Assembly (NCBI RefSeq): GCF_028641065.1
Contig: NC_073398.1
Coordinates: 21,824,001-21,888,000 of the forward strand
DNA: 64,000 nucleotides
Direction of reading: 5' to 3'
Origin: Leucoraja erinacea
Taxonomy: Eukaryota
A program made the position numbers and the translations under genes. Shown piece by piece: positions 2,003 through 64,000 of the stretch (its first letter is position 1; each line of letters opens with the position of its first letter). Under the pieces are notes generated by a model. The model was not told the origin of the DNA, ran no database searches, and saw only the letters and a list, made by a program, of their open reading frames with translations.

Positions 2003-2094
2003 GTGCTTCCACAACGATTCCAGAAGACTTCCCTGCCTTTAAAACAGTCTACAGGATCATTGCAAAAGATCCTGACCCTCAAGGAGAAATTAAA
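2003..2094 (+). CDS. Gene A exon A1 (92 nt, phase 1-0): [31 protein letters not shown]
   Basis: aacag|GT..AAA|gtaaga; same size as paralog exon 53483-53574. Confidence 0.88.
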
Positions 2095-30033: not shown

Positions 30034-30068
30034 TTACATCCATTTCCGCAGCCCGATCTCATTATTTC
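30034..30068 (-). CDS. Gene B terminal coding exon candidate: NNEIGLRKWM*
   Basis: strong acceptor tctttcatattttcag; GLRKW resembles TGQRRW of gene A. Confidence 0.62.
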
Positions 30069-42000: not shown

Positions 42001-45000
42001 CTTACAGTAATTTCATTTCCACTGATGTTAAACCTTCCTGTTGAATATGAGTCAAGCACCATGCTGTAATTCAAGATATTATTTACTACTGTTCTGTCAT
42101 TATCCCAGCAGTTTAGCGACACAACTGGAGTGCCCTCTGGGGAGGTCTCAGCAAGCTCCATGCTAGGAAATGAAATGTAGTTAAAAGTTAAACCTTCCTA
42201 ATAAACTCGGGTAATAAGATCAACATTGCATCCAACTCAACAATTAACTGAAGGACATTTCAGAATCAGACCTTCAGAGTACAGATGTAAAAAATGTGTG
42301 TCTGGTAGTGGGTAAAGGGACAGCAAGAATCAATAAGAAATAAGATATAGATTTGTAAATATGGAAAGTAAGATAATAGAATCTTTTATTTAAACCCAGA
42401 GAATGATGCAGATGTGGATGTCACAACCATTGGGGAAAGATGGATATTCCAAGTGTGTTTAAGGATGAGTTAAATAGACAAATGAAGGATAAAGGAATAC
42501 TTTGAGTTTAAATGAGTGGAGGGTGGATGGAAACTCAGAGAGAGAGAAGCTCAGACACCAGCTTGGACATTTCAGCACTCTTAATATTTTGCAACAATGC
42601 AATGTTTGTACTCCTTTGGCTGTTTAGAGTGACCTTCAGCATTACCCAAATGTGCAAATGTTTATGTACATAATGCTTATTAAAATCATATCAACATTTT
42701 GGACATGTTGAATATTCTTGGCTGGTGCTCAAAACTGATTTGAAAGCTTCATGTTCATGAAATGGAATATCATATTTGATTTTAAGAAGTCAGAATAAAA
42801 CTCTAAAGATTGACTGGAAATTAAACATTTAGCAGATGTGGTTTAGTCACTATTCTTATCTTAAAAGCTGAATTAGTCTCTGTACTAATTTCTATTTTGT
42901 GTGGTAAAATTTCCATGCAAGTATTACTTCGCCATTATGAGGTTGACTCAATCAGTAATCACCAAATTTATAATGCATGTAACAATAACTAAAACCACCT
43001 TGAACATGAAATGTTAAATCTATTTATCTCTCTGTTAATGCTGCCTGACTATAATCCTAGCTAGAGTGATAAAGTGTGGAAACAGGCCCTTCGGCATAAC
43101 TTGCCCACACCGGCCAAAATGACCCAGCCTCACTAGTCCCTCCTGCCTGCGTTTGGGCCACATGCATACCTGTCCTATCCATGTACCTGTCTAACTTTCT
43201 TAAACGTTTGGATAGTTCCTGCCTGAACTACCTCCTCTGGCACCTTATTCCATACCCCCACCATCCTTTTTGTGAAAAAGTCTTAAACCTATGTCCCCTT
43301 GTCCTCGATTGACCTACTCTGGGAAAGAGATCTGTTGGGTACTTCCAGCATTTTTCGTCTTTATTTCTGATTTCAATAATTTGCAGAATTTTGCCTTTTA
43401 CCATAATTAATCATAGGGAAGAGGAATTCAAAATCAATGAACTGCTTTATCATTAAAAATGGGCATAACCCACCAACTTGAGGGTGAAGCCCACCATTCC
43501 TGCATTGGCAGTCCAGCCATAAGGAGTTTACATTTCTTTCAAAGTAACAAACAGTAATATTTGTGCCAGGGCTCCATTCATGGGTAATGGACACAAAAAG
43601 ATAATAATTTTACAAGAATCTCCATTAATAGATTAAACATTTTGAAAGAGTACCAGCTGCATTTTAACAAGGTTGGATCACCTTAAATTAAACTTGTGGA
43701 TGCTTGTTAATTTCCTATCAGTGATTTGTTATGGCAAATAATGCCTTATTAACAATCTGTAATGCCTTGTTTCAAAATCCACCACTATCTTTTCAAGAAA
43801 GGAGCAGCAGTTTGCTGCTGAGAGAAGTTGAAAGGACGAGGGCAGAGTTTGCTGTGCTGAAGTTAATTCAATAACACTGCAGCTAAGTTATAAAGATTTG
43901 TTGTTCAGTCACATTATCTGGTTCGTTGTTATCACTGCAACAGAGGCTCCAGAAAGACCAAACTTTAATCAATTGGCCTTGGGCTCAGAAGAATTTGAAA
44001 CAGGCCAAGCAGTAAACTGTTGGCCATCCAGAAATTTGTCTCGTGCATTGGAAACACAATCCTCTCAAAAGTGTGAACGATTAGGTCAAAGTTATGCATA
44101 AGGTAAGTTCAGTTTATTCATTGCGAGCTGCATTGGCAAAGAATGCAGACAATTTCAGCATTTGAAGCACCATTTATGTTTGGAAATTCTAAAGAGCAAG
44201 AAATAATATTCTGTCTGAAAGCACTGATATTAAATATATTTCAAAACATAGTTGTATAAGACAAAGTGAGGCTGCACTTTGAGTATTATGTTCCGTTTTG
44301 GTCACCCTGCTATGGGAAGAATGTCGTGAAGCTGGTAAGAGTACAGAGAATATTTACATGGATGTTGCCAGGACTTGAGGGCCTGAGCTATAGGGAGAGT
44401 TTAAGCAGGCTGGGACTATTCCTTGGAGTGCATGAGGTGAGGAGTGATTTTATAGATGTGTATATAAGATGATGAGGGGAATAGACTCTGAATGCACAGT
44501 TTTTTTTCCAGGAGTAGGGGAATTGAGAACCAGAGGATGTGGGTTCACAGTCACAATGTCACAAGGCAATGCATTATGTACCTTCTGCTTTCTTGTCTGA
44601 ATTATTGGTATCTCAGAAACTGAAAGTTGACAGTGCCCTTCTCTCTAGATGAATCAAACAACGTTATGAATAGACAATCGTCTAGCAAAATGCTTTATTC
44701 AATAAAGGGAACTGTTTAAGTTCTTAGTTGAAACAAATGATAATCACAGGGATAATGTGAAGTGATTTGGTATTAGTAACTAGGGCAGGATTGGAGATGG
44801 GTGGTGTTGTCATGCCAGGTTCCATGAAGGAAGAGAAAATATATACATTGTTTTACCTGTGTTAAAATGGATAAAATAACATGTGGTAAGTAAACCAAAC
44901 TATTAATCGGGTGTATTACTAATAGCTTCCAAATACAATTACTCAGCCTGGACATCATAATCCTCGCTGAGGAGCAAGATGGCTCATCTCATAGATGATC

Positions 45001-48000
45001 TGAAAATCACACTTGACAACCTGCACATCTTCATCAACTTTGGACAATATTCCCACTTTGCCTTTAATCCCATAGCAGCGATTTTTAAACCTTAATGGCA
45101 TTGAGATTCCATTTAGTTTTTTTTAATTTAGTTCAGAGATATATGGTGGAAACGGGCCCTTTGGCCCACCATGTCTGTGGCAACCAGCAATCCCTGCATA
45201 TTAACGCACTAGGGACAATTTTTACATTTACCAGACCAATCTACCAACAGACCTGTACGTCTTTGGAATGTGGGAGGAAACTGAAGACCTCGTAGAAAAC
45301 CTACGCAGGTCATGGGGAGAACGTACAAAGTCCGTATGGACAAGCACCTGTAGTCGGGATGGAACCTGGGTCTCTGGCGCTGTATGGAAGCAATTCCACC
45401 ACTGGGTCACTGTGCCACCCTTGGGTGGGTTTATTTTTGCTTGGGTTTTGTTTAATCTTGTCTTTGAACTGGTACTTACATGAAGATGTACCGGGAACAC
45501 TGTGGAGGGTTATCATTGACATCAGCAATATTGATGGTAAGTGTAGAGGTGGAGGAATGCACTCTGTCAGAATCATATGCTCTTATTTCCAATATTGAGG
45601 TAGTGAGTGTATTGATATCATCATAATCTACCAAGGAAGCTATTTTGATCTCGCCAGTGTCTGTTTAAAAGAAAAAAACACAATGGGGAAGAAATAATAC
45701 AATCTCCACTGCAGTGTCAAAGAATGCATTATCGTTTGAAAAGACCAGAGCCTTAATTATGCTATGATGACAGAAGAATTACATGAGCATACAAAACAAT
45801 TAATGGTCTGTCTCATTACATCGCATCAAGGGATAATAAGACATTTTCAGGATTTGGCATTTACATTGTGGAAATACAGACCTTGAATCACGGAGGCAGA
45901 TAAGCCCAGAATTGGCTTGAGTTATTTGTCCAAAATGCAATGCCTATAATCTGACTACCAAATAATAATATTTTAATAGAATTTGCATCTGATGCTTATT
46001 GCCAGGAACACAGTGGTGCAGCTGATAGAGGTACTGCCTCTCGACGCCAGAGATCAGGCTCATTCCTGTCCTTGGGTTCTGAGTGTGTGCTGTTTGCACG
46101 CATGTTTCAGCATGGATTTCCTTTCAGCGTTTTGGTGTCCTCGCACATCCCAAAGACGGCAGGTCTTTAGAGAAGCAGCCCCTTCAGCACACCAAGTGCA
46201 CGCTGACCATGGCCACCCTTACACTAGTTCTATGCTCCACACCAGGGACAATTTACCAAAGGCAATTAACCGACAAACCTGCACGTCTTTGAAATGTGGA
46301 GGAAACTGCAGGAAACCCACGTGGTCACAGGGAGAACGTACAAACTGCATAAAGACAACACACATGGTTGGGATGAAACCCAGGTCTCTGGCACTGTAAA
46401 GAAGCAACTCAACCACTTGCCACTGTGCCACGCTAAGGTCAATAGGTTCATTTGCCACTGTAATTTACGCCTTGGTGCATGGTAGAATCTGGATCAAGTT
46501 GTTGAAAATATGGAGAAAATTAAAAATAGGATTTATGTAGAATGGGTGGCTGATGGTCAGCCCAGATTTGATGGGCTGAAAGGCCTATTTCTGTGCTGTA
46601 TGCATCAATGACTATAATTTTAATAATTTTGTGCCTAGGATCATATATTTGATCATACCATATCAATGTAGAGTGAAAGAGGAAAAAAATCCAATAGTTG
46701 TGATTATCTCTAGCTATCAATAATGTGGAGAAGACAAAGCCCCGAATTTCAGTAAAGATTGGCATCAACTTCAACACAATATCTAAGGTAATAATTCTTG
46801 GATTGTTATCTGGGCTACATGCAAATTGGCTTAAACTAATAGGATCACATTAAGTAATGCATGGTTCATGGTTGAATTTGGCGTTTTGAGGCCATGGACC
46901 TGTTATGGAGTGACGTGGGGCTAACTACCCAACCGCTGTTCCTAATTGGTATATCTACAAGTACACTGAGCCCAGACAACAGTCATGTTAATGATAGACA
47001 ATTAACATTAATGTCACACAAGCTGAATGATCTGAATTTTGATGTGTGATCTAGCTTCTCACAACATTGACTTCAAAGTACATAGGCTTGTGTGCAAGAT
47101 GAGGTGTTCTGAGGCTGCTAAAGCTTTGATCATAATTGAGCCATTTGGCCCATCGAGCCTGCTTCACCATTCGATCATGGCTGATCTTATTTTTCCCACT
47201 CCGCCTATTCAACTGTCTTCTCCCCATAACCGTTGACATCCTGCTAATCAAGAACCTATCAATCTTTGATTTAAAAATACCCAAAGTCCTCTCCTACACA
47301 GCCGTCTGTAGCAATGAATTCCACAGATTTACCACCCTCTGACTAATAAAAAATCTCTTCATCTCCTTTCTAAATATACATCTTTTTATTCTGAGGCTAT
47401 GACCCCCTGGTCCTGGATTCTCCCATTCATGGAAATACCCTCTCCTTATTAATGCGTCAACCTGTAAAATGGGTAGTTTCAGGTCAGTTGGATACTGATC
47501 ATCAAAACATTTGTGTTTGAGGCATCTTGATAGAATTTGCTGCTTTTAACTTGCTGAATTATAGACATCTCATTAGCATCTTTCCGGTTTCCATCACACA
47601 GCATTCAAAAATTCAAAGTGCTGATGGAACTCAGCAGGTCATCTGTGGGGGGACTTCTTCAGACTCTGAAAAGGGCACCAATCTGAAACATCACCTCGCT
47701 ATTTCTCTCTACAGATGCTGCCTGACCTGCCGAGTTCCTCCAGCACTTTGTTTTCCACTCTAGATTCCAGTATCTGCAGTCCCGTGCCTCTATTATTCAA
47801 AGATCAGTCGGGTAATTTTTTATTGTTTAATCCATCGTATTCAAAGCCCATTCCATCCGAATACTGTGCATTTACCTTCTTCAATCAGGAAGCCAGCATG
47901 AGTCTTTACAAATTCATAATAAATGACATCATTTTCATCCTTGTCCGTGGCATTAACTTTTATTAAGAATGTTTTCCAGGGCAGATTCTCATCAATAATG

Positions 48001-51000
48001 AGTGGGTTTGGTGATATTGGCCTTGAAAGACAAAAGATGCAGCTTCATTGTTTTATGCTTGTGCTTGCATGGTTATACCTGCAATCACATTCTCAACATG
48101 CAGCACCCTTGCAACAAGTCCTGTAGAACGTAGGGCTTCAGGATGTCATGGATATCAAGGACCAAAATAAGGAAGAATTGTAATAGTTGACACTTGCCCA
48201 GATGTTAGAAATCTATCATTAGCTCTGTTTCTGAGACTTTTAAAGCCGTTCATAAACAACAACAAATATTTAAGCAAATTTAAATAGCTTTTTAAATAAT
48301 TGAATAGCTTGTTAATTTTTTTTTTGCAATTCATAAAGCAATGTTGGAATGGTTTAAATATATTGTAATCTACTGACTGTTAATAAGTCTTTATAAGTTA
48401 CAAAACTCAGAAATGATTTGCTTGAAATAGCTCCTTTCCATTTGCATCAATAGGGAGAGAAAAGCTCGAACCCTTTTGAAATTGAGTGTAATTTGGATGT
48501 TGGTGAATGAGCTCAGCCTCCTGCTTCTTCTCTCAACTCCACAATGAGTCCAGTGCCATAGTTTAGGCCACGGCTGATGACCAGTCACTGACCACCATTT
48601 CCCAGTTTTGGCCCTAGTTGCTCTCCCAAGGTTACGCCTGTGCCCAGGTATCCCTGGAGAGGGAGCCTGCACTGTCCACTGGCTGTTTGGAGGCTCTCTG
48701 GGACTGCTGAGTGTTACAAGGAGTGGCGTGCATCCTGAACCAGGATAGCAATATTTAAACTTGACGTTTTAATTTAATGTTTATTTGTAAATAATGAATT
48801 GAGAATCGTATGAATATGTATTAAGCATTTAAAAAAACTAACTTTGACCCCACTGTGTTGCTGAAGCTGGGCCAGTGGTTTGCAACTTGGCCAGTGAGCT
48901 GCCCATTGCTATCTGTCTGGATCTGCCTTTCCATCGCATCTCATAGAACATAGCACAAGACAGGCTCTTCGGCCCACATCTCTGTGCCGAACATGATGAT
49001 AAGACCAACTCTTAACTGCCTGCATGTAATCCATTCCCTGCATGTCTGTTCAAAAGTTTTCTTAACACCGTCCTATCTACTTCATCCACCACCACCCCTG
49101 GCACACTACCCTCTGTGTATATATTTTAAAAAAATTAAACCTGCCTGACACACCTCCTTTAAATGTTTCCACCTCACCTAAAAGCTATCTCCTCTAGTAT
49201 TTGACATTTCCATCCTAGAAGAAAAGTTCTGACTGTCTACCCTATCAATGTCTCTCAATTTTACATACTTCTCTCTGGTCTCCCTGCTAATTCCAGAGAA
49301 AACAATCCTAATTTGCCCAACCTCTCCCTGTATCTTATATATCCCCTAATCCAGGCTACCCTAATTCTGGTAAACCTCATGTGCACATTTCTAAAGCCGC
49401 CATATCCTTCCTGTAATGGGGTGACCAGAACTGCATGCAATACACTGAATGCAGCCAAACCAAAGTCCTATAAAGCTGGATCATGACTTTCTGACCCTTG
49501 TACTCAATGCCCCAACCTATGAAAGCTAGCATACTCTATGCCTTCTTTAGCAAATGGTGTGCTTGCTCTCCATACCAACTGGGACTGAAAATGAACATAC
49601 AAAAAGTAAGGGGCCAAAACTGCAGATTGACGTCCTGTTTGGGAAGGTAAAATGAAAATGACTTACAGGAATATTGGTGGCTCATCATTGACATTTTCAA
49701 GGTTAATTGTAACAGAGCCAGTGCAAGACTTGGGGCTGCTCTTTCCAGCTTCAGCAATCTCAATTTCCATCTGAAATCTCTGTTGTTAAAGGAAATGTAA
49801 AGAATATTAGTAGTATTGCATGCAGTTCTGGTCACCCCCTTACAGGAAAGATGCAGAGGGTTTGGAGAGGGTGCAGAGGAGGTTTACCAAAATGCTGCAT
49901 GGTTCAGGTATAGGTTTAGTTACAGGGAGAAGTTGGATAGATGTAATTTTTTTTTCGGGGATGTCTGAGGTTGAGGGGAGACTTGATGGAAGTATATAAA
50001 ATTATGAGAGGCATAGATAGGGTAGATGGTCAGAAGCTTTATCCTAGGGTGGAAATGTCCAACACTAGAGGGATAGCTATAAAGTGGGTTATAAACCACT
50101 ATAAAGGGAAAGTTTAAAGGAGACGTGCAAAGGCAAGTTGTTTTTTTTTTAAACAGTGGGGGCCTGGACAGTATTGTGGTGGATGGTGGTGGAGGCAGAT
50201 ACAGTAGTGGTTTTTAGATAGACATGTAGAAGTGCACGGAATAAAGGGATATGGATCATGTACAAGCAGATGAGATCTGTTTAACTTGGCATTATGTTCG
50301 GCACAAACATTGTGGGCCGAAGGGCCCATTCTTGTGCTGTACTGTTCTATGTTCTAACGAATGGCAATACATTTTGAGAATGGGGCCCTTTACCCAAAGC
50401 TTGGGTCGGCTTCATTGTATATACCAGTGGTGCTTGGAGGTCTCAGATGAGCAGAGGGAATTTTGCTTGAGTAACATACCACTGCGTATCGCTCATGGTA
50501 TCATACATTATGCGCACAGAAGACTTGGAACAAATTTTCCGATTGCAATTCCTGGGCACCAAATATCCAGAGGAGTTCAGGGATTCAGTTTTTCAAATAG
50601 TTCAAAAGAATACAGCACACAAATGTTGCACTGTGATTCTAGATCAATAACTCAACAAGTCTTGTTGAACCAAGATTCAACCAACTTTATCAACAAGTAA
50701 ATTGTGATAACACACAGGATATTGGCAAGCCAGAAAATAGTTTGTTCAGTCATTTACCTTGATGCCAGCTTCATAATCTAAAGGTGAGATGGAAGTTCTT
50801 GAAATCAGTCCACTGCTTGAATCCAGGATGAAGTACTGTGTAGCTCCTGCAGTTGCATCCGTTATAGTGTACTGGGATGTGAAGTTGAGTGATATCATTA
50901 GTTTACAAAAGCAATCTGGATTGACGGTTTGTTTCAGTATTCTAGGGTTGGGCATGCAACCATTGCAGCTATCTGAGTGGAATTGGGATCTTAGTGCTGT

Positions 51001-54000
51001 GCATAATAGTCTGGGATAATGTGCACTGCACTATTGGAGGATTTTGTATGAGCAGGCTGGAGCTATTGATCAGTGCTTTGAGGTGTCTGCTGTATGAAGC
51101 CCATGAGCTGGACAAAACCATTTGAATTGTTGGTTTCTTTTCATACCAAGACTTGGACCTTGAAACACACTTTTCCTCAGTTGTGCTGACATGAATTTAT
51201 TGTCAATATCTACCCTTACAGAAGCAATTCTCAAGGCTGGAAGTGGTTCACATACTCTTACATAGAAGAAATTGGAATTTTTTTAAATCTGTTTCTATAA
51301 AGCTAACAAAATTTGTAACATCGGCTCGGGAGAATTTAGGAATATAAGTCTTGTAATTGTTTGTTTAATAGTAACATTCATTATTTCTTGTAATAATGAT
51401 TTTTGAAACGTTTATAGTACTACACAGTGCAAGGCATGAGAGCAGCAGATATAACATTTCACACCTCCTCTGACAACCTTTGTCTCCTATTCTCCTCCAG
51501 CCTTTGGCAGATGAGTGGAGCAAATGACAATCAAATCCCAGTCACCTGTATCCAGTCACCAGGCCTTATCCTGCCCCCACATCTCTTTTCTAGCTTTCTC
51601 TCCCCTACTCCAATCAGTCTGAAGACCAGTTCTGACCCAAAATATTGTCCATTCCCTCCACAGATGCTGCCTGACCACTTGAGTTCCTCCAGCCCTTTGT
51701 GTTTTCTTCTTCTTCTTCTTCTATGTAGTTTTTTTTGGCGGTTGGCAAACAACATTTTAGTGCATTACCGCCACCAACTGGTATGGAGTGTGGATCAAAT
51801 AACATTATAACTTATATACTAATAACCTATATCTTTCCAAACAAATTGGTTACCCTGAGAAAAAGCATTAGGATTTGATAGCACTTATATGAATTATTTT
51901 GTAAAATATCTATTAAATCAAATTGTACTTTTTCTTTTCTGAATCGTTCACTCATTTGTCTTCTTTCTTCCTCATACCTCTCACAATGTATAATGACATG
52001 CTCTATTGTCTCTTCTTGCCCACAGTATTCACATCTGCCTGTATTATGCTTGCCTATTATAAAAAGTGTACTTCTCTTTTCTGTTTTTTCCTGCACATCT
52101 CATTTCTCCCACTTTCCTCTGGACCCTGTAGAACCACCATCCTTTCCGCTCTTCCTCCCATTGCTTTTGCCATCTTTCCTTCAGTCTTTGCTTAATAATG
52201 TCTTTGATTTCAGTTTTACCTATGTTAATACTTAAATCAATCTTACTTCTTTTTGTTACCTCTTTTGCTACCTTATCTGCCAATTCGTTTCCTCTAATGC
52301 CAATGTGTGCTGGTACCCATAAAAATATGACTAAGCCCCATCATTTGAATTCTGAATAGTGTTTGTTGTATTTCAATCAAAATGTCCGGTCTACTGTCTG
52401 AATGGCTGTGCTGTAAACTCCCTTTTGTGTTTTGCAGCAACCATAACATGTTCAAGCTTCACCTATTAACTTAATTGGGCCATTATATATTGACAACCCC
52501 CCCCCTCTCAAAAAAAAACCTTGGGATATTAATAGATAGACACAAAAAGCTGGAGTAACTCAACAGGACAGGCAGCATCAGAGAAGGAATGGGTGATGTT
52601 TTGTGTCGAGACCCTTTTTCAGACTGGTTAGGGATAAGGGAAACAAGAGATGTAGATGATGATGTGGAAAGATAAAGAACAATGAATGAAAGATATGCAA
52701 AAAAGTAACGATGATCAAGGAAACAGGCCATTGTTAGATGTTTGTAGGGTGAAAATAAGAAGCTAGTGTGACTTGGGTGGGGGTGGGATAGAGAGAGAGA
52801 GAGAGAGAGTGAATGCCGGGGCTACCTAAAGTGAGATAAATCAATAATATATTGATGTATGAAAGGAACAATGATAAGCAAAGTTAGCTTTAATACAAAG
52901 GCACCAGAATCCTTTTCCTCATGGTAAAATCTCACTGCTGGGATAAAATAGGGTTGCCTCTTGCACCTGTGGAGTGTTGCAGCATGGTTTAAATTGGGGT
53001 CTCTGCAATGAATATGCCAACATAGTTGGAAATTAATGAGTGGTATTTGTATATGTATATATATATATATTAGTTGTCAGAATGAAGATAACCAGGGTAT
53101 ATGGTTTATTAAATTTGTTAAAAATGCCATTGAAAGTTTGTTCAGATTTTTTAAAACTAACTTGTACTTGCATTGAATCTTCAGCGCTGGACAACACCAG
53201 GACATGATCTGATGAAGATTGGCACCAGAACAAAAGAAAAGGCATTGGGACAGGTTAATGTTTGTTCAAGGAAATGCATTTAGAGAGGCTTGAAAGAAGA
53301 TGATGTATAGGTTTAGAAAGACTAAAGGTAGAAAACCTAATGATAAATGCAGGGCAATATGGAAAGATTTATTTCTGAATTAATTCTAAAAGGACAATGT
53401 GAAAGGTACAAATTCCCATTCCTTTACAACAACATTACTTGTGTTATTTTCACTCGCAGGATGTAATTTATGATTTACTTACTTTAACAGAATCATTGAT
53501 ATCCGGATCAGCAGCAAGTAACTGATATACTGATGCTGAAGTTGGAAAATTCTCAGGAATAGAAAGTGAAACACCTGGTGAGAAGAAAAACCTTCTGAGT
53601 AATTTGAACATTGAACGCCGTAACAGTGCTTTACTTAATGTGCTGCCCTGTTCATGGTCATGAAGTTGCCTCTACTCTAAGAGGAGTAACCTGTCATGTT
53701 GGTTTTCCATTTAAAGTTATGAATACATCTAATATTTTCATGGCATCTGCATGTTCAGTATTGTGCCCATACAGCAATCCCCCCCCCCCAATAATAATTA
53801 GCTATTCACTTGTATTTTTAATATGTGCTGGAATTCTTAATAGTGCACTCTAAATGCAAGGCAGCAAATCTCCTTTGGTTTTCCTAATAATTTTATTGAA
53901 AACATTTTCTTCATTGTACTCCTCCCAATTTTAAGTGGCAGCATCAGCCAATGAAGCTGGACGCACCATTGCATAACAAAATCAATTAAATGGGTGCCTC

Positions 54001-57000
54001 AATTATCTACTTCAGACTTACAGAGGTGCAGCTTCATGCAGCATTTGCCAGGTAACATCACAAAGTAATGTAGCATTCACAGTATATCTCAGCAGTGTGG
54101 TTACCAAGAAGATATTCAGGGGAGCTACCTACTTTAGTTTAGAGAATCAAGCATTTCGGCACACCGCGTCCACACCAACCAACAATCCCCGCACACTAAC
54201 ACTGGTCCTACACACATTTGGGACAGTTTACATTTATACCAAGCCAATTAACCTACAAATATGTACGTCTTTGGGTTGTGAGTGGAAACTAAAGATCTCG
54301 GAGAAAACCCATGCAGGTCACGGGGAGAACCTACAAACTCCGTACAGGCAAGCACCCGTAGTCAGGATTGTACCCGGGTTTCTGGCGCTGTAAGGTAGTA
54401 GCTCTACTTCTATGCCACCCAGCTGTCACTATTTGCCTGTCTGTAAAGTTAGCAATATGTGTGGCTTTTCAGTAAAATCATTGCAAGAAATTAAATGCTT
54501 CTTGCATTAGTAAACTTGTATACATGAACATTGATTTTAAGCACAAAACATAACTAAATAATCAGCTGGCTAAGACTGGCTGACATGCATTGGAGGGTCA
54601 GGTTTTTCTCTTAGACCAATTCGTGAAACAAATCATCTTGTTGAACCATTGAAATCAATAGCATTGTACAGAAATATAAAGAGGAGACACATGAGAATGC
54701 AGATGCTGATATCTGGAGAACAAAGCACACTTCTGAAGATGCTCAGCAGGTCAAATAGCATCTTTGTGGACAAAGGGATGGTGGATGTTTTGTGTCCAGC
54801 CCCTGCATCAGTGTCCTTGCCTCCATAGACATGAGATAAATACCTGCTCCCATAGTGAATGCAGGGTCACAGTCTGGTGCTTCATCGACATTGACCACGG
54901 CGACTGTCAGCGTGTATGTGGCCGAGTGCGTCCGATTGTTATCATATGCTCTGATGGACAAGAAGTGGACTTGTGCAGCATCGGGGCTGTCGTAGTCCAG
55001 CCGGCTCTGGAGAATAATATCGCCAGAGTCTGAGGAAAGACAAAATAACACAATTAACCATGTCACCCTTCAGATGAAGGCAATATGAAATCTTAATGTC
55101 TGTGGTGATGCTACAGCATGGCAATTAGTCATGAAATTCTACTGTATCTTATGGTGTTCCCAAATCTACTGTGACCATGGCATTAAACTATTCTGAATTA
55201 GGAACTATAAGTTTTGTTACAGCAATCCAAACAGAAATGTTTGCAAAATTAATTCAGTCCATTTTGTTAATATCTCCTGGCATTACTTCCATTGATGAGT
55301 GATTAAATACGAATTTTGGTTGACAATATTATCTCCTCTGTGTTATCACGCAAGTGTGAAGTGACATTTACTGTTATGCATTTTCCTCCAACCCGGATAT
55401 TCCTTCTACTTCCTCCTGGGGGAGAGTGGCATTTAAATAACAGACACAACAGCTTTCATCCTGTCCTGGTGTCATGATGTTGGAATACACCGAAGATAAA
55501 CACAAAATGCTCTAGTATCTCAGTGGGACAGGTAGCATCGCTGGAGATCCGATACGTTGCCCATTCCTTCTCTCCAGTGATGTTGCCTGCCCCGCTGAGT
55601 TACTCCAGCATTTTGTGTCTATCTATGGTACCACTTCTTCACAGATACAACCGACAAATGGACAAACTGGATTTAAAACATGTTCAGATTAATTTTACCT
55701 GCATCCGCCTTCCGTAAAACATCATTTCTTGAAGGTTGCTCTCAGTTAGCGGAGTTTGTTAAGATGTTTGTTAACAGATTTGTTTAGATCATTGTTAAAA
55801 AGCAATGGTTTATTTATGCAGGGTCAGGATGATCATAAAACCATAAGAAATAGGAGCAGAATTGGGCCATTCAGCCCATCGAGTCTGCTCTGCCATTCGA
55901 TCATGGTTGATCTATCTTCCCCCAACCCTGTCTTCTCCCTGTAGCTTTTGACACTATTACTAATCAAGAACCTGTCCATCTACATTTTAATAAAACCCAA
56001 TGACTTGGCCTCTACTGCCATCTGTGGCAATGAATTCCACAGATTCAGCACCCTGTAAAGAAATTCCTCCTCGTCTTCATTCTAAAGGTGTGTCCTTTTA
56101 GTCTGAGGTTGTGCCGTCTGATCCTAGACTCTCCCATGAGTGGAAGCACCAGTATTGCTCCTCTCCATTGATCAGCTCTTTGTAGCAGCCTAAGAATGCC
56201 CTTACTATACAGTGCCTGCTTAATGCTAGGGGCTCACCATCTACAATTGAATGAGGCTGGGTACCTATAGCAGTGGCAACACACTGGAGTGAGTGTATTG
56301 ACAACATAGGTGGCCTCTTACATTGATACATGGTCCAATGTGGTTGGAATCTAATCTAATTGCCTTTGTAGTAACAATATTCAGTTGGCATATTTATGTT
56401 CTATTTGTTGGTGCAAGTTGCAAGTTCAGACAGACTCACCATTGCCCAAAATGAAAAGAGATTGGTTATCAATAAACTCAAAATAAAGATTGTCATTCTC
56501 ATCCAAGTCAGAAGCTTCCACCTTCCCCAGCAGAGTTCCAATGAGCATTTCCTCTTGTGCATTTATTGTATCCGAGGAGATGGGTCTGCAAAAGGAGATA
56601 GCTTCAACCACCACAGTAGTAAACAGTAAAATAAATCAAAACTTACACACAAAGCAAAAAAACTCTCATCAAATGCATTGATAATATTCTAACTTCTGCA
56701 CATTGGATATTTGGGAGTTGGACTGCTCTGGGCGACTCTAACACCGTAAATTAATTCTCCACTGCAGCTATTGTTTTATGCCATTGTGGCTCGATGTTAT
56801 CTGATGCATCCTTGGGCAAAAGCTAAGAGATAAACTCTGGGCTGGCTGCTTTTTCAATTTAACACCACCTGCTATCTAACGGCGGGATTATTCAGCAAGT
56901 CAACCAATTCAGCATTCAATTTTTCAACATAGTGACGAACCAAGCAGAAAAACTCTGTCATTTATGGCAACAGCCACTCTTATGCCAACCATATAAAGCA

Positions 57001-60000
57001 GATCCTGGCTCTATGTAGAGAGTCAGGTTTCTAGGAATTCCAATCCACCAAAGCAAGTGCACTGGGGCAAATGCACAGGCATCAAGAACATTAGTGCACC
57101 TACCAGTGCAATTCTCAGCAGCCGTTGAAAGGGGGTTGCACTGTTCTGCAATAGAAAACATGTTGCCTGGGACGTACCAGATCCTGAAACATTATGTGGG
57201 TGGGAGGGGAACAGGGATGGAGCTGAGAGCTAATCTAAGATTCAGCAATGAGATGACACTCGGGACACTGTAAGTGGCCAAGGACAGGTACGTGGCCAAA
57301 GTTTCCTATTCTTGTTCCAGAGATCCCTCTGATCTCTGCAACTTAATAGAAATGTTCTGGCAGATGTAGCCATTCGGCCTATCTGTTTACCCTGGCTCAT
57401 GGTGATGCAGTGCCAGCAATCTCATTTTCCTGTTATTACCCAGTTACCCTTTGAAGGCACTGGTTGAATCTGCTTCCACCACCCCTACATGCAGTGAATT
57501 TTGTATCTTAACTAATCTCTGCATTTCAAAAATTTTCCTTACATTTACTTGTTGTTTTTTGTTGAACTAATTAAATTTGTGCCGCTGCCATGAGCCATCC
57601 ATGAATTGTAACTGCCTCCCCCCTATTTGCCTTCTCTAAACCAGCCACAATCTTAGTATTGCAAGATGCTGGTTAATACACAAAAGAACGCAACTTAGCA
57701 GGTCAAGCAACATCCCCGGAGAACATGGATAGGTGAGGTTCCAAATCGAGACCCTTCTTCAGACCACAATCTTGTCCACCTCCATTGTTTATTTAATAAC
57801 TGCACTTGATTTTTGAATCAGGCATGCCCTTGGTTAAAATCACATCAATGCCTGCAGATTTATAGACAACATTATTCTCAGTGCAACTGTTCTTTGTTAT
57901 GGTGTGGGGTGGGCTTCATATTACAACCCGAATGCTAAGCTTGCTTTACTTACGTAAATATAGGCACTTCATCATTCAAGTCATTAACAACGATGGTCAA
58001 AGTTCCCTTGCAAGAGTGTTGTGGAGCTGGGATTCCATCATCTTTCACTTCAATCTTCAGTGTGAAAAACTGTGTCAAAAAATAATAAATGAATTACAAC
58101 AGGTGTGATTTATTGATCTTATTTCAGCACATCTAGCCCCACAATAATTTAAATTTCCCTGAAATCAGGACTGACTTTTGTGAATCACCAGCACCAATGT
58201 TAGGGAATGGGTAATTCCTGCAATTTGCCTCTAACTTTAACTGGCAGATGTCCCTATTCATGGCGATGTACCAATTAGGATAAAGAGCTGCAGAGAATCA
58301 CAGTGCCATCCTGCTGGAAGGGCTGTGCTGATAGCAGAAGATTTAGACAATCAGTTTTCGAGCCCTGTCTTCAATAGACCTTCTGTGAACAGACATTCCA
58401 CAAATTCCACCAGAGAATTGAAATGTCACTAGCCTTAAAGCAGTGTTGCTTGTGTTCACAGCAAAACATTTTTTCACAGGAACTTGCCCTCTTGTCCTTG
58501 TATAATGGCAAGTGTCAGAAATTCCCCACAGTCTCCCAGCGAACTATAATATAAAGAGGTTAACCCTATTCCCAGTCTTGTCATTTCCATGAAATAATTG
58601 TTGTATTTCACACCTCTGCATGAAAATGATTTTCCATTATTTTTACAATAGTGATCATAAGGTCATAAATGATAGGAGCAGAATTAGGGCATTCAGCCCA
58701 TCAAGTCTACTCCACTATTCAATCATGGCTGATCTTTCTCTCCCTCCTTACCCCATTCTCCTGCCTTTTCCCCATAACCCTTGACATCTGCAGTGATGAT
58801 GGGATCCAAGTTTAAAAGTTGCTGTGCATAATACTGCCTGAGATTCTGGCTTTACAGGTCTCTGTAAATTGTCCCTTAGTCCGTAGGGGATGGGTGAGAG
58901 TGGAGGAAAACATAGAACTAGAAGCCTGGATGTTCGATGGTTGCGTGGACTCGGTGTGCCAAAGAGCCAGTTTCCATGCTGTATCTCTACAACTAGAATT
59001 GGAACATGCATATATGCAGGAATATACACTCCTGGACAAGGTTCCTCCTTCAGTAACACCTACATTATTACCAATTACTGACAGAACAATTCCCTCTGAT
59101 CCTATACCCTATCCCCTCCTCGGTTCTTGAACTACAAGCATTTTTTCTTCTCCTGGGCTGAGAGCGATCTCCATTTATTAGTCACCCTCCTGCACTTCCT
59201 CGTCCAATCCAAACTAATGGAACACCAGTGGGCTGCGGCCAACTGTAAATAAACCTCCAGTGCACCCCAGCAACCAAAAGCCGCACTAAATATACAAATT
59301 GTATTATATTAATTACTACATAAGAGGACTGTGACTGCAGACTTTTCAGGGTAAAATGCTAGGAAGTGGAGAATTTCAATTTTAGTTCATTCCAATGTGA
59401 ATATATTACAGCACCATATGGAACATTTCGAGGAAAATGCTTAGCAATTTATTTTAGTAAATGACAAAAAACCTTTGCATACACAAATAAAAAGATCTAG
59501 TATTGCCTTGTAAATGTTTTCTGGACTTACATGATATGTGTGGTCATAGTCTATTATTGTTGTTGAGTTTCTGTACACAATTCCAGTGTCAGGGTCGATG
59601 TTGAACAAGTTGCCTCCGGTAACTGGACTGGATTCCTGGGACACAATGCTAAACTAATACAAATATGGAGACGCGTTAATTGACTTAGGTTTAAATAATG
59701 ATAGAGTAAGTTTATTTGTGATGGAATTTTTGCTTGTAAAATTTAAATTGTAATGATAATGTGAGGTGTCGGAACTTACAAATCGATGCAACCCGATTAG
59801 CTGAATGGAGTTCAGTGGAAACTATGTGTCATGTGTAAGGAAGAACTGCAGATGCTGGTATAAATCAAAGGTAGACACAAAATGCTGGAGTAACTCAGCA
59901 GGCGAGGCAGCATCTCTGGAGAGAAGGAATGGGCGATGTTTTGGGTTGAGACCCTTCTTCAGACTCAGTGGCGGACTGGCCAGGGTGTCAGCTTGCCCGA

Positions 60001-63000
60001 TGGCAAGTGGGCCCCTGATGAAGTGATAGCTAGTGATGGCAAGTGGGCCCCTGTGAAATGATAGCATTGTAGTTGTGGGTGGGTCCACTTTGTCTCCTGG
60101 CAACCAATATTTTTAGATCCAGTCCGCCACTGTTCAGACTGATGTGTCATGTACTGTGTATCCCAGAATTTGCAAATCTGAGTATTTTCTTGATGGTAAA
60201 AGATTAGCGGAGTAGTGAACAAATGTTCTTGTTGAAATATACAATCATTTTCAGCTTGTGCCAAGGTATGAAGTCAAATGGACTTACACCACTTACACCA
60301 CTGTGGCTGGAATACAAATGGGTGGATGTTATACTTGGTCAAACATGATGTGGATTGCAGAGCTTAGTGGGTGTAGTACTTTTCGAAAAGGGACATGTTA
60401 AACATCAAGAGATCATGTGCAAATTTACAACAATGTTCTCGAAGCTTAATGGGTTAAATTAGAAAGATCATGCTACATAAATGAGTTTTAGGAGGGAGAT
60501 CTGTTCCTGGGCTTTAAAATGGAATAGGAAATGAATATCGACTGCAGGGCGAATTCAGAATCAGGACACAAACCTGAAGGTTCCAATCACGCCAAAACAA
60601 AGGTTTTAATGTAGGAATGTATTTAAAACGTTTTGGAAGACAAGGAGCACCATATTATTGGCACCTGCCTAAAATTGTCTGATATCTATGTGTGATATCT
60701 CTATTGTTCTGATAGTTCAGATATCGGGTAGAACTTACTGTCAGTGAATCTCCTGCATCTGGGTCTTCAGCGGTAACCTGGTAGACTGATTTGAGATTTG
60801 GGTAATTCTCATCAATGTTCACAGTGGCTGCAATATATAAAAGCATTATTATTGCTCCCAGCAATGACTGATCACTTGGATGCATTTATTTTATATTGTG
60901 GGTTTGCTGGAGAACGGATGGATGGTTGGATGCCACCACACCCTTCCTCTCACCATCTCCTCCCATTCCACAAGCCTTCCCTTACTCAATCTCCTGCACA
61001 TCGCCGATCATAGCGACCCCTCATATCTTTTGCTTCCGTTGGTCTTCTACTGTATCTTATGGTGTTCCCAAATCTACTGTGACCATGGCACTAAACTATT
61101 CTGAATTGGGATAATCCTTTCACACTAAGGGTGGTGGGTGTATGGAAGCTGCTGCCAGATGAGGTAGTTGCAGCAAGGACTATCCCAATCTTTAAGAAAC
61201 AGTTAGACAGGTACATGGAAAAAAACAGGTTTGGAGGGATATGGGCCAAACGTCGGCAGGTGGGACTAGTGTAGCTGGGACATGTTGGCCGGAGTGGGCA
61301 AGTTGGGCCGAAGGGCCTGCTTCCACGCTGCTTCACTCTATGACTCTATGAAAGACCGATCCTAAAACTTGCCTGTTCCTTGTGTCAGCTGTGGTGAGGT
61401 GCACACTGGTGGTTCATTGACAGGCTGAAGCACAATGGTCAGGGTCACTGTGACAGTGTTGAGCCCTTTGTCTGTGACAAACACTTGCAGTGAATGGTAT
61501 TTGATTGTTGTGCCGTTATCGTAGTCCAGTACTGTCGTTGTAGTCAATATCCCTGTATCTGTAAAGGTACAAACTATTGTGATCAATTCTTTCTCAAAGC
61601 GCATGAACATCCTACTCGAACAAAATGGAAATGCATTGAATCACAAATCATCAATGTGACGTCAAATATTGCGGATTTGCGCATTGTTAACAAAGGCTTC
61701 TCTTTGTAGTAAACACCATACCGAGGGATTACAGATTAGCAAGAGATTTCAACCAATTTATACATTTTAAAAGAGAAAACTTATTTTTATGCATGACATG
61801 GGCTTTGATATTTTTTAATGCGACTTGCATTGTATTTGATGCAAGAGTTAGACAGAATTTAGAGAGAGTGCCAGGGAAAGTGATCTATTTATCTCTGAGA
61901 CAAGGTCTTCCTTCTTTCTGACATCTGCTGCTGTGACATCGTTAACCAGTCAGGCCCTGAACCTTGGATTGTTTTCACTGGAACATAAGAAGCTAAGGGA
62001 CAACCTGACCGATGTACACAATTATGAGCAGCCTTGATGCAGTTGATGGTCAAAGTATTTTTCCCAGGATGGAAAAATCAACTAACTAGAGGAAATAGGA
62101 TTAAGGTGGGAATCATCATTTTAAATGTGATTTAAAAGACAAATGTTTTATACAGAGGGCGGGAGATGCCTGAAACACAGTGCCAGGAGTGGTAGTAGAT
62201 ATGAAAGTGATAATTAAGAAGCATATAGATAGACACATGAACAGGCAAGGAATAGAGGGATATGGACCTCTTGTAAGCAGCTGGTATTAGTTTAGATTGA
62301 CATCATGGGAGCAACAGACATTGTGGGCCAAAGGGCCTGTTCCTGTACTGTTCTATGTTCTACATTCTCTCAGAGTGCAAATCAGGAAGGAAAAGCAGAA
62401 ATTAAGTATCTCCATCTTTGGAATATCCTTGTGAGTGCATAATAACTCTTATTTTTTTTTTGGGGGGGGGGGGGGGAGACTGTTTACTAGTTGGGAGAAT
62501 GGGATTAAGGGATAGATAGATCAGCCATGATTGAATGGCGGAATAGACTTGATTGGCCAAATGGCCTAATTCTGCTCCTAGAACATATGAACACAAGGCA
62601 ATTGTAATGGCCTTTGGGGATCCGACTAACAATGTGCATCGTGGGTAGAGCAGGGATGTGAAGGGATATATGAAATATGTCACAACCACAGTTTGCTTTT
62701 TACATTTTTAATAAATGTGTATGTTGAGTGATATCCTTACTTGGATCAATGGAAAAGTCTTGGGAAGCTGTAGCAAAATTATAAGATGCAACATCATCCG
62801 CATCCCTATCGGTGGAATTCATCCGCACCACCTCTGTTCCAATGGGTTGGTCTTCCGTGAAATTTATTGGATTTTCAGGGCTGAAACTTAACATAAAGAG
62901 TGAGGTTTTATAAACCTGTCACAAGGAGTGACCAATATGCATGGTCCTCCACTACTCCCACATTATAGTTTCCATGAACTCATTTATTTCTGCATAACAA

Positions 63001-63422
63001 GAATGATTCTTCGTAACTCCACAATATCCCAAACACTTTGCAAAGGGCACATCACCTGCTGTAACATGTTTTATATGTAACTAGTTATATATAGTGCAAG
63101 AAGGAACTGCAGATGCTGATTTACACCGAAGATACACACAAAATGCTGTCTGAAGACTGAAGGGTCTCGACCACAAACTTCACCCATTCCTTCTCTCTTG
63201 AGATGCTGCCTGTCCCGCTGAGTTACTCCAGCATTTTGTGTTTGTATTAGTTGTATATCGACCCTCTTTATTCACGGTGGCCCCCCACTCCAGGTCTCCT
63301 CCTTACCTCACGACAGGGATTTCATCATTCAGATCAAGGATGTTAATAATGAGAGTTCCTTCACAGGACATCTGTGGAGCTGGGTTTCCTTTATCTTTCA
63401 CTGTAACACCCAATGAGAACAC
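30034..63422 (-). CDS. cdhr4-like: Gene B: cadherin-related family member 4-like paralog with expanded ectodomain, 5'-partial, about 23 exons; tail exons uncertain or disrupted
   Basis: 20 phase-consistent exons from 63422 to the TM exon (32584-32714); the last 12 correspond one-to-one to A1-A12; tail exon candidates at 30364-30034. Confidence 0.85.
30178..30208 (-). CDS. Gene B cytoplasmic exon candidate: ASFNGKTVHP (homolog of FDGRTVDE); donor reads AT instead of GT
   Basis: ttgcag|GCA TCG TTT AAT GGA AAA ACT GTA CAT CCA A|ataatg. Confidence 0.55.
30297..30364 (-). CDS. Gene B cytoplasmic exon candidate (68 nt): TSPAPNELRSILR, then apparent 1-nt frameshift (TGA at 30321-30319)
   Basis: tgtgtttcag|G..GAG|gtagct; removing 1 nt gives ...RHDPPPPQPE with a phase-0 end, as in A14. 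Confidence 0.55.
32584..32714 (-). CDS. Gene B exon B20 (131 nt), transmembrane: FTTSVLSLTSAYWAPESWFVALMTLAAAVTVLVVFGIAWACIT
   Basis: tccag|TTC..AG|gtcagt. Confidence 0.9.
32930..33225 (-). mobile_element. HE1/V-SINE-like SINE
   Basis: gccaattaacctacaaacc..tacgtctttggaatgtgggaggaaaccggag..tctctggcgctgtgaggcagca..tgcaccactgtgc. Confidence 0.75.
33275..33545. repeat. Degenerate GC-rich minisatellite-like array
   Basis: recurring gg(a)accccca(g)tga / gcaggacccc(c)a(a)gt(g)acatc units. Confidence 0.55.
33712..33956 (-). CDS. Gene B exon B19 (245 nt): ENAEDLFELQRAG...[19 protein letters not shown]
   Basis: tgtag|AA..CAG|gtaatc; counterpart of A11. Confidence 0.9.
34470..34860. repeat. Degenerate C-rich tandem repeat
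   Basis: recurring ccagctgcacacccagtcccactgccc and gccagtaccactcccagct units. Confidence 0.65.
35600..36125 (+). mobile_element. Nested CR1-type LINE 3' fragments
   Basis: RGNFFTQRVVAVWNELPVEVVEAGSLVSFKNKLDRHM (ORF 35715) inserted within another CR1 tail. Confidence 0.75.
36715..36856 (-). CDS. Gene B exon B18 (142 nt): NVNDEPPVCNPEYYESTIYSTITTPFVQLQCSDGDSPDDELSYSIVG
   Basis: tgcag|AAC..G|gtgaga. Confidence 0.92.
36889..37127. mobile_element. MITE with imperfect TIRs of about 37 bp and a degenerate (TAACCC)n core
   Basis: ggtacttttcggtgccgccattttggcgcctccgttt vs aaacggtggtgcctaaacggcggcgccgaatggtacc; direct repeat agtgtga at 36882-36888 and 37128-37134. Confidence 0.72.
37561..37594 (-). 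ncRNA. Minimal hammerhead ribozyme motif (Penelope-like element copy)
   Basis: minus strand reads GGTCTGAAGAAGGGTCTCGACCTGAAATGTCACC. Confidence 0.55.
39197..39522 (-). mobile_element. HE1/V-SINE-like SINE
   Basis: same consensus as 32930-33225 with (tttag)n tail. Confidence 0.72.
40176..40321 (-). CDS. Gene B exon B17 (146 nt): GRIRLLSSLDSEKQGTYILTVKATDMNNDLQLDPLRQRSSSALVTVNVL
   Basis: gacag|GT..TTG|gtaagg. Confidence 0.92.
41045..41260 (-). CDS. Gene B exon B16 (216 nt): TARVIVKVTPVNERSP...EDSPIG...PPRFYIESDS
   Basis: cttag|GT..G|gtaatg. Confidence 0.92.
41356..41461 (-). CDS. Gene B exon B15 (106 nt): VGSSLLQYDVSSFAAVHFQHLIIVKITDNGKPQLT
   Basis: tacag|GTC..A|gtgagt. Confidence 0.92.
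42006..42162 (-). CDS. Gene B exon B14 (157 nt): MELAETSPEGTPVVSLNCWDNDRTVVNNILNYSMVLDSYSTGRFNISGNEIT
   Basis: cctag|C..ACT|gtaagt; intact counterpart of A6. Confidence 0.92.
44245..44550 (+). mobile_element. CR1-type LINE fragment
   Basis: RLHFEYYVPFWSPCY...[19 protein letters not shown]. Confidence 0.75.
45111..45420 (-). mobile_element. HE1/V-SINE-like SINE
   Basis: same consensus; ends actgtgccaccc. Confidence 0.72.
45480..45660 (-). CDS. Gene B exon B13 (181 nt): DTGEIKIASLVDYDD...IADVNDNPPQCSRYIF
   Basis: aacag|AC..AT|gtaagt; counterpart of A5. Confidence 0.92.
46005..46432. mobile_element. Two oppositely oriented V-SINE fragments
   Basis: cacagtggtgcagctgatagagg...(+) joined to ...gtctctggcactgtaa...cactgtgcc(-). 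Confidence 0.62.
47876..48021 (-). CDS. Gene B exon B12 (146 nt): PISPNPLIIDENLPWKTFLIKVNATDKDENDVIYYEFVKTHAGFLIEE
   Basis: tcaag|G..G|gtaaat. Confidence 0.9.
48942..49560 (-). mobile_element. CR1-type LINE 3' fragment
   Basis: reverse-strand RT C-terminal sequence (YRERLGKLGLFSLE) and catagaacatag tail. Confidence 0.72.
49667..49779 (-). CDS. Gene B exon B11 (113 nt): RFQMEIEIAEAGKSSPKSCTGSVTINLENVNDEPPIF
   Basis: aacag|AGA..CT|gtaagt; counterpart of A3. Confidence 0.9.
49800..50356 (+). mobile_element. CR1-type LINE 3' fragment
   Basis: gcagttctggtcacccc...gtgcagaggaggtttacc...gtactgttctatgttcta tail. Confidence 0.75.
50758..50871 (-). CDS. Gene B exon B10 (114 nt): YTITDATAGATQYFILDSSSGLISRTSISPLDYEAGIK
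   Basis: cccag|TAC..AAG|gtaaat; LDYE motif. Confidence 0.9.
51706..52419 (-). mobile_element. 5'-truncated Nimb/I-clade LINE (RNase H end, zinc-finger region, 3' UTR, (GAA)n tail)
   Basis: VPAHIGIRGNELADKVAK RNase H motif; CEYCGQEETIEHVIIHC; ccagttggtggcggtaatgcac 3' motif; near-identical target duplication ccc(t)tttgtgtttt. Confidence 0.82.
53483..53574 (-). CDS. Gene B exon B9 (92 nt): GVSLSIPENFPTSASVYQLLAADPDINDSVK
   Basis: accag|GT..AAA|gtaagt; counterpart of A1. Confidence 0.9.
54130..54420 (-). mobile_element. HE1/V-SINE-like SINE
   Basis: aagccaattaacctacaaa..gtcacggggagaac..tctggcgctgtaaggtagtagctctac. Confidence 0.75.
54844..55029 (-). CDS. Gene B exon B8 (186 nt): DSGDIILQSRLDYDSPD...VVNVDEAPDCDPAFTMGA
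   Basis: ctcag|AC..CAG|gtattt. Confidence 0.9.
56440..56585 (-). CDS. Gene B exon B7 (146 nt): PISSDTINAQEEMLIGTLLGKVEASDLDENDNLYFEFIDNQSLFILGN
   Basis: tgcag|A..G|gtgagt. Confidence 0.9.
57954..58069 (-). CDS. Gene B exon B6 (116 nt): FFTLKIEVKDDGIPAPQHSCKGTLTIVVNDLNDEVPIF
   Basis: cacag|TTT..AC|gtaagt; homologous to B1. Confidence 0.9.
59531..59653 (-). CDS. Gene B exon B5 (123 nt): FSIVSQESSPVTGGNLFNIDPDTGIVYRNSTTIIDYDHTYH
   Basis: attag|TTT..CAT|gtaagt. Confidence 0.87.
60739..60827 (-). CDS. Gene B exon B4 (89 nt): ATVNIDENYPNLKSVYQVTAEDPDAGDSLT
   Basis: tgcag|CC..ACA|gtaagt. Confidence 0.9.
61373..61558 (-). CDS. Gene B exon B3 (186 nt, GC donor): TGILTTTTVLDYDNG...VLQPVNEPPVCTSPQLTQGT
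   Basis: tacag|AT..CAG|gcaagt; same size as module counterpart 54844-55029. Confidence 0.87.
61960..62365 (+). mobile_element. CR1-type LINE 3' fragment
   Basis: ttggattgttttcactggaa...gggccaaagggcctgttcctgtactgttctatgttcta. Confidence 0.7.
62741..62880 (-). CDS. Gene B exon B2 (140 nt): PENPINFTEDQPIGTEVVRMNSTDRDADDVASYNFATASQDFSIDP
   Basis: ttcag|C..A|gtaagg. Confidence 0.9.
63307..63422 (-). CDS. Gene B exon B1 (116 nt): VFSLGVTVKDKGNPAPQMSCEGTLIINILDLNDEIPVV
   Basis: tgcag|GTG..AG|gtaagg; DLNDE motif. Confidence 0.9.
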
Positions 63423-63668: not shown

Positions 63669-64000
63669 AATATTATTGCCTCTCTAAACAAAATGTAACT
63701 TCTCATCCTCTTATCCAATCCTGTTTCCATGAACATGCTGTTTTATATATTGAATTTTAATGCTGATATTTTATTTTTTACCCTTGATTCTGTGAAAATG
63801 GGAAGAATTGAATTAATCAAGATGAGAAAGATTCACTGAAGTTCTAGTTGCAGTGGATATGAGATTAGATTCCATCTTCTGAATTGGCATTGGAATAGGT
63901 TTATTATTGTCATTTGTACCGAGATACAACGAAAAGCTGTTATCTGTTTTCATGTTATCTAATCCACTCCATTGCTTAGTTTTCTTTAGCTTAGAGATAC

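Follow-up and report, generated by a model that had tools for sequence, protein, structure and literature searches.

Fat cadherins carry 34 repeats, and a single cadherin repeat is 4.5 nm long. To our knowledge, the long vertebrate cadherins (CDH23, Dachsous and Fat) all have old and fixed repeat counts. For CDH23, 27 repeats (EC1-MAD28) are given in a structural report (PMC8691648). The small CDHR3/CDHR4 family is built of cadherin repeats only, with one transmembrane (TM) segment and a short tail in human CDHR3, the receptor of rhinovirus C. According to two reports, human CDHR3 has six repeats, is located apically on ciliated airway cells and is of unknown function (PMC6301718, PMC7911512), and Cdhr4 falls with ciliary genes in the ependyma according to another (PMC11221146). 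Vertebrate CDHR4 proteins, of about 800 amino acids, consist of EC1, one two-repeat module, three basal repeats, a Thr-rich stalk and a tail motif, and sharks and rays carry their own six-repeat CDHR4 (P0021, P0050).

Here we describe gene B of the skate Leucoraja erinacea, located in a stretch of 64,000 nucleotides which was analysed as a whole and is referred to as the window. We consider it likely that the window encodes the membrane-proximal portion of a very large single-pass cadherin belonging to the CDHR3/CDHR4 family, which has grown by modules and may serve as a surface tether of species-specific length. Gene B was rebuilt from splice sites on the minus strand; its parts, and the neighbouring gene A, are as follows.

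63307..63422, minus strand: exon B1, class c of module m3 (third from the membrane), 116 nt, phase 0-2; first gene B exon in the window, the gene continuing upstream
62741..62880, minus strand: exon B2, class d of m3, 140 nt, phase 2-1
61373..61558, minus strand: exon B3, class e of m3, 186 nt, phase 1-1, with a GC donor at 61372-61371
60739..60827, minus strand: exon B4, class a of module m2, 89 nt, phase 1-0
59531..59653, minus strand: exon B5, class b of m2, 123 nt, phase 0-0
57954..58069, minus strand: exon B6, class c of m2, 116 nt
56440..56585, minus strand: exon B7, class d of m2, 146 nt
54844..55029, minus strand: exon B8, class e of m2, 186 nt, phase 1-1
53483..53574, minus strand: exon B9, class a of module m1 (which groups with the single module of six-repeat CDHR4), 92 nt
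50758..50871, minus strand: exon B10, class b of m1, 114 nt
49667..49779, minus strand: exon B11, class c of m1, 113 nt
47876..48021, minus strand: exon B12, class d of m1, 146 nt
45480..45660, minus strand: exon B13, class e of m1, 181 nt, phase 1-2
33712..42162, minus strand: six exons for the three membrane-near repeats and the Thr-rich stalk (42162-42006, 41461-41356, 41260-41045, 40321-40176, 36856-36715, 33956-33712)
32584..32714, minus strand: transmembrane exon; the TM helix appears in the ortholog model
30297..30364, minus strand: cytoplasmic exon, stopped in frame by a TGA at 30321-30319; isoform X2 of Mobula terminates at this residue too
30037..30208, minus strand: decayed remnants of the two last family exons, at 30208-30178 (donor reads AT) and about 30068-30037 (shortened), which encode the conserved tail motif in sharks
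2003..25172, plus strand: gene A, a convergent paralog of 8-repeat type in Rhinoraja and Mustelus, starting upstream of the window

The 13 minus-strand exons of the preliminary description were all recovered with the claimed sizes, phases and places and in one open frame. Eight whole cadherin repeats and the last third of a ninth are found in the window, for which at least 8.5 had been estimated. The frame, of 963 amino acids, remains open across these 13 exons and seven further ones, through the transmembrane exon. All acceptors are AG, and 17 of the first 18 donors are GT, that of B3 being the GC. A decayed TTAGGG-like array, holding 5 of the 26 exact units in the window, lies at about 36950-37070, some 100 nt upstream of one of the gene B exons. 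A 67-bp duplicate, 97% identical, is present at 55137-55203 and 61045-61111 in non-equivalent gene B introns, and its 24-nt core occurs just twice in the window. An assembly gap (N) occupies 29639-29808, just downstream of the 3' end of gene B.

The repeated pattern of exon classes is real and goes beyond chance. Among 19 exons compared, the best non-self match lies in the same class for all 13 of the module exons, with z values of 4.9-25 for same-class matches against shuffles. A lack of two-repeat periodicity in a self-comparison had been set as a possible refutation of the module; this periodicity is present in the whole-repeat scores, which are 98-210 for repeats of the same type versus 53-109 for those of the other type, with slightly overlapping ranges. 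The phase 1-1 module had been proposed as a unit that can be duplicated in frame, and this part stands. Phase 1 is, however, not special, as all five rotations of a-b-c-d-e keep the frame and some blocks that break a repeat do too, and the proposal fails for the last module (646 nt), which ends in phase 2 and so allows neither in-frame skipping nor clean copying between introns. Only one complete phase 1-1 unit is contained in the window, the middle module of 660 nt. The phase goes from 1 to 2 across exons a-b-c and from 2 to 1 across d-e, and neither single repeat keeps the frame; because a single repeat is not frame-symmetric, two repeats would form the unit of duplication, and we infer that this asymmetry explains the two-repeat unit. 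For exon e of m2, 6 of 8 rows show a body similar to the m1 exon and 8 of 8 a tail similar to the EC1 exon, which hints at a first duplication through a crossover inside exon e, the compared rows being related and the signal weak.

The structure of the skate gene upstream of position 64,000 was read from orthologs. The gene had been expected to run past this point, and ortholog models indeed extend far upstream of the part equivalent to the window. When a basal exon and distal modules were used as queries, gene B orthologs came from sharks and rays only, and no skate protein was among the best 120 matches in either of two ortholog searches. The identity of skate gene B is 84% with the proteins of Mobula hypostoma and Hemitrygon, 76% with that of Mustelus, 71% with that of Chiloscyllium, 44-48% with 8-repeat genes and 36-38% with 6-repeat genes. 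Its 20 exons all align, in their order, with residues 2756-3724 of a single Mobula model (63-91%). Two models are complete, from a signal-peptide-like start through to the membrane: XP_062928863 of Mobula hypostoma (3737 aa; EC1, 15 modules and three basal repeats) and GCB72575 of Scyliorhinus torazame (2492 aa; EC1, nine modules and three). Their totals of 34 and 22 repeats, respectively, are counts from annotation models, in which near-identical repeats can collapse or be duplicated by assembly. They compare with six repeats in CDHR3 and 27 in CDH23, and the Mobula count equals that of Fat. The other models are partial or split (Hemitrygon 2012+474 aa; Mustelus 1429 aa; C. plagiosum 1760 aa; C. 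punctatum 1603 or 960+1115 aa), and the database names are Fat4-like, cadherin-23-like or CELSR1-like. That B1-B8 might belong to a separate upstream gene, as named in advance, is contradicted by Mobula, Hemitrygon, Mustelus, Chiloscyllium punctatum, C. plagiosum and, as the sixth, S. torazame, where B1-B8 and B9-B13 share one protein model. Ectodomain lengthening by in-frame duplication of the a-b-c-d-e module is supported, and variable length holds between species, with nine versus 15 modules; the modules of the window, on the other hand, are position-fixed and not the variable part.

The age of the modules was addressed with unrooted trees of 56 and 68 modules. Catshark rows were added to the second after the pattern had emerged in the first; the second tree was built without five rows (two from Discoglossus, gar, paddlefish and one catshark CDHR4). 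Gene B modules cluster by their position in the protein, m1 and m2 at 100/98-99 and m3 at 95/72. The m1 cluster also takes in m1 from the 8-repeat genes and the one module of CDHR4; m2 is placed alongside its counterpart in the 8-repeat genes, the order among them being weak, and m3 is common to sharks and rays. At the level of sequence grouping, three layers of apparent age are shown: m1 with CDHR4, m2 with the 8-repeat genes found in bichir, amphibians and lizards, and m3 within sharks and rays. The remaining modules form one long-branch clade adjoining m3 (100/100), in which the first modules of catshark and devil ray fall together (100/95) and the middle modules separate by lineage, those of rays at 95/90 and those of sharks at 94/92, the latter slightly short of the starred support level. 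AU tests, with groups chosen after the first tree, reject the three window modules as one clade (p 1.8e-5) and likewise the shark and ray fourth modules (p 8e-68), which argues against orthology by position for the fourth module. The skate window modules are 33-38% identical to each other and 63-85% to the module at the same position in sharks and rays, and their introns show no similarity beyond dispersed repeats and the one 67-bp duplicate. A recent duplication of the window's own modules was rejected on the basis of the AU test, the divergence between modules and the lack of intron similarity. These three modules are, judging by their sequences, old and position-fixed.

The distal part behaves differently from these fixed positions. 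Identity between middle modules reaches 91% in S. torazame; in Mobula it reaches 99%, and a four-repeat higher-order copy is formed there by modules 3-4 and 6-7. Conserved in position are the ends, namely the signal peptide, EC1 and the first module at one side and m3-m2-m1 with the three basal repeats at the other, and the tip is 63-65% identical between shark and ray (63% over signal peptide and EC1). Fixed ends around a homogenised middle are the known outcome of unequal crossing-over between tandem copies, and since this is the pattern found, the window would show the array's old base, with the part that changes lying upstream; it is there that we place a young, homogenised array. Gene B shares the frame-symmetric block, the fixed ends, the homogenised middle and the higher-order repeats with known tandem exon-module arrays under concerted evolution, and no report of such an array in a vertebrate cadherin ectodomain was found in our literature search.

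The protein itself repeats the two-repeat pattern. Linkers inside the modules read (D/N)xNDE in 15 of 15 cases in Mobula and 9 of 9 in S. torazame, whereas linkers after the modules read DxND in just 1 of 15 and 1 of 9, respectively. Each unit is thereby predicted to have a full acidic linker inside and a reduced linker towards the next. In the respective reports, a calcium-free cadherin linker is described as more flexible (PMC8427231) and a two-calcium linker as straight (PMC8691648); extra flexibility at the reduced linkers of gene B is therefore possible but not certain. Two cysteines lie near the two ends of the first repeat of each module, the distal second repeats have gained a similar pair, and disulfides are predicted. 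A single-sequence fold of three distal repeats reached a pLDDT of 35.9. The AlphaFold model of the Chiloscyllium ortholog, calculated from a 29-row alignment (mean pLDDT 79.7), contains beta-sandwich repeats, one TM helix and a three-strand tail, and all 40 Foldseek matches listed for it are cadherins.

In its family placement gene B departs from the preliminary description, which had regarded it as CDHR4-like; it does not group with vertebrate CDHR4 and is not CDHR4 itself. In a tree of the three basal repeats (27 rows), genes A and B form one clade (100/99), apart from lamprey and from CDHR4, which is a clade of its own (100/100). Gene A falls loosely (82/78) among the 8-repeat proteins from bichir and amphibians, together with one coelacanth fragment. 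Another fragment from coelacanth joins gene B, at a support that is not firm (90/86), and the lineage is also found in lizards. Based on these groupings, we regard genes A and B as a separate 8-repeat paralog lineage that is also represented in coelacanth, bichir, amphibians and lizards, and the gene pair may be older than the split of sharks and bony fish. Latimeria carries two genes of this lineage (P0010/P0011 and P0016), one of which groups weakly with gene B. The nearest relatives of gene B are the 8-repeat "CDHR3/4-like" genes of sharks, bichir, amphibians and lizards (gene A type, together with the coelacanth fragments), which share EC1, m2, m1 and the three basal repeats and differ in having two modules only, no distal array and an intact tail. 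The trees contain CDHR4 rows and no CDHR3 sequence, and the lineage may be closer to CDHR3.

Further features point to the CDHR3/CDHR4 family. Gene B encodes cadherin repeats only, with a single TM segment after the Thr-rich stalk; its three membrane-near repeats and one module are closest to CDHR4/CDHR3, searches with exon k returned this family first, and CDHR3 and CDHR4 clusters are the top three in the ESM Atlas (0.95, membrane-near part). The matches returned by the sequence searches did not include CDHR3, nor did the 60 PDB matches shown, among which generic cadherins appear. The six repeats of CDHR4/CDHR3 orthologs are exceeded, with eight whole repeats in the window and 22 and 34 in the orthologs. 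An identity as Fat4 or CDH23 was rejected at 25-30% identity and without EGF/LamG (true Fat4 is 26-29% identical to the query region); the Mobula protein has neither EGF/LamG families nor a long cytoplasmic domain. The repeats of Fat4, CDH23 and Dachsous are ancient and divergent, whereas gene B holds recent near-copies and a tiny tail. A Pfam match of exon k to Tox-MPTase3 (E 0.0035) is below the cut-off and was taken as spurious.

At the cytoplasmic side, the in-frame TGA at 30321 ends skate gene B 15 residues after the last whole codon of the TM exon, and in the motif exons beyond it a donor is lost and the last exon is shortened. The tail motif, FDG..DP.SG..Y..N..TG.R.W, is present in the shark orthologs P0004, P0005, P0007, P0372 and P0373, recognisable in gene A, and missing from the Mobula X1 and X2 and Hemitrygon gene B models. 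Its loss is likely common to skates and rays, as far as can be read from these models, and with a truncated tail the skate protein may be anchored differently from that of sharks. With three strands in the model, the family motif may be a WW-like domain, at which a Pfam WW match in 1 of 8 proteins (E 0.083) gives a hint (regions P0044 803-823, P0007 934-956). Gene A, the paralog and the only neighbour of gene B in the window, is disrupted in the skate as well. A 107-nt insertion at 9650-9756, part of which copies intron sequence near 8965-9012, breaks one exon by a stop and a frameshift, and the RefSeq skate model has just 204 aa, which the C-terminal part of gene A matches at 92-100% per exon. 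The Rhinoraja model is intact (1045 aa), and the skate disruption represents a pseudogene, an allele or an assembly error.

Taken as a mechanism, a five-exon, two-repeat block would have been copied repeatedly by unequal crossing-over, lengthening the ectodomain, and we hold this architecture and history of gene B with considerable confidence. The protein would then act as a long tether at the surface, its ends fixed and its middle a spacer of species-specific length. It would form a rod of about 100-150 nm at 4.5 nm per repeat which, as predicted from the alternating linkers, may consist of stiffer dimers strung together by weaker joints. The analogy with CDHR3 might place it apically on ciliated or sensory epithelium, with the tip as the binding part; a long apical tether with a spacer middle is suggested because of the ciliary placement of CDHR3 and Cdhr4 and the conserved tip. 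This role rests on analogy, and we are somewhat more inclined to doubt it than to accept it. More speculative, and in our view rather improbable, is a tunable molecular ruler with conserved tip and base, whose middle would gain or lose two-repeat units, between species through recombination and within a single animal perhaps through splicing, and which would set a link span of about 100-150 nm between cilia, microvilli or sensory hair bundles, uncoupled in rays from the cytoplasmic WW-like motif.

Other explanations bear on the length, its origin and its reality. An expansion by unequal crossing-over could be neutral, the length functionless and the gene decaying in rays, in line with the truncated skate tail, the lack of the tail motif in any ray model (Mobula X1, X2, Hemitrygon) and the broken neighbour gene A of this assembly; we find this unlikely, as all 20 exons are open with sound splice sites, identity to Mobula is 84% over 919 aa, and the distal repeats keep their cysteine pairs and calcium motifs. 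We would give no more credence to a splicing cassette, in which one gene would produce many ectodomain lengths by skipping whole modules. Every 1-1 module can be skipped in frame, and among the eight Mobula RefSeq isoforms X5 lacks exactly one module of 214 aa and X6 a module plus 29 aa (243 aa). The X5 junction is, however, not independent evidence of skipping, because at the protein level it is identical to the normal junction of modules 4 and 5. Both of these share 96-99% identity with module 7, and mis-mapped reads among modules this similar would give the same model. The module-skipping isoforms that the preliminary description had suggested looking for come down to X5, the only RefSeq isoform without exactly one module; the losses in other isoforms, of 29 and 36 aa, cover parts of a repeat and resemble noise, and none of the eight skips a module that lies in the window.

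An annotation artefact, with the distal and proximal parts as separate genes or the counts as assembly errors, would account for the split RefSeq models of Hemitrygon, Chiloscyllium punctatum and Scyliorhinus and for the fact that no transcript or read was seen to span gene B. One polyA RNA dataset from a related species, of which about 6% was read and whose tissue is not stated, has zero depth in the B7, B9 and B10 bins and 0.03 at B8, with no exon joints among those shown, and bears on neither splicing nor expression. Such an artefact is nevertheless quite improbable in light of the two independent complete models, which agree at the start (63% over signal peptide and EC1) and at the end, of six further or partial models that cross the distal-proximal boundary in frame (P0006, P0018, P0215, P0228, P0373 and the Mobula isoforms), and of the split pieces themselves, which lack a start or a TM segment and in Hemitrygon have consecutive accessions. 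We give least weight to the idea that the long ectodomain was kept from invertebrate cadherins and that CDHR3/4 were shortened, which we hold to be highly implausible. Long "Fat 4-like" cadherins without EGF/LamG families do exist in amphioxus and molluscs, and the module trees are unrooted; yet the invertebrate proteins are only 27-31% identical, the lamprey protein has six repeats, and the distal modules are 41-99% identical within one gene and grouped by lineage, by which this reading is largely refuted for the distal array.

Our literature search, which covered few subscription papers, found no paper on gene B, and the main text of the catshark genome paper does not contain "cadherin" or "cdhr" (PMC11979771). 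A Fat-sized ectodomain of species-variable length in the CDHR3/4 family thus appears to be undescribed, the mechanism being known and the proteins present in databases under other names. The locus would represent an unnamed third lineage of the CDHR3/4 family, and orthologs of gene B are mislabelled in databases as Fat4, CDH23 or CELSR1. It would mean that a small cadherin family has reached the length of the long vertebrate cadherins by repeated duplication, with a count that still differs between species. The living series of six repeats (one module), eight (two modules), 22 and 34, with all stages extant, may serve as a natural test of how an ectodomain lengthens and whether its length sets its function.
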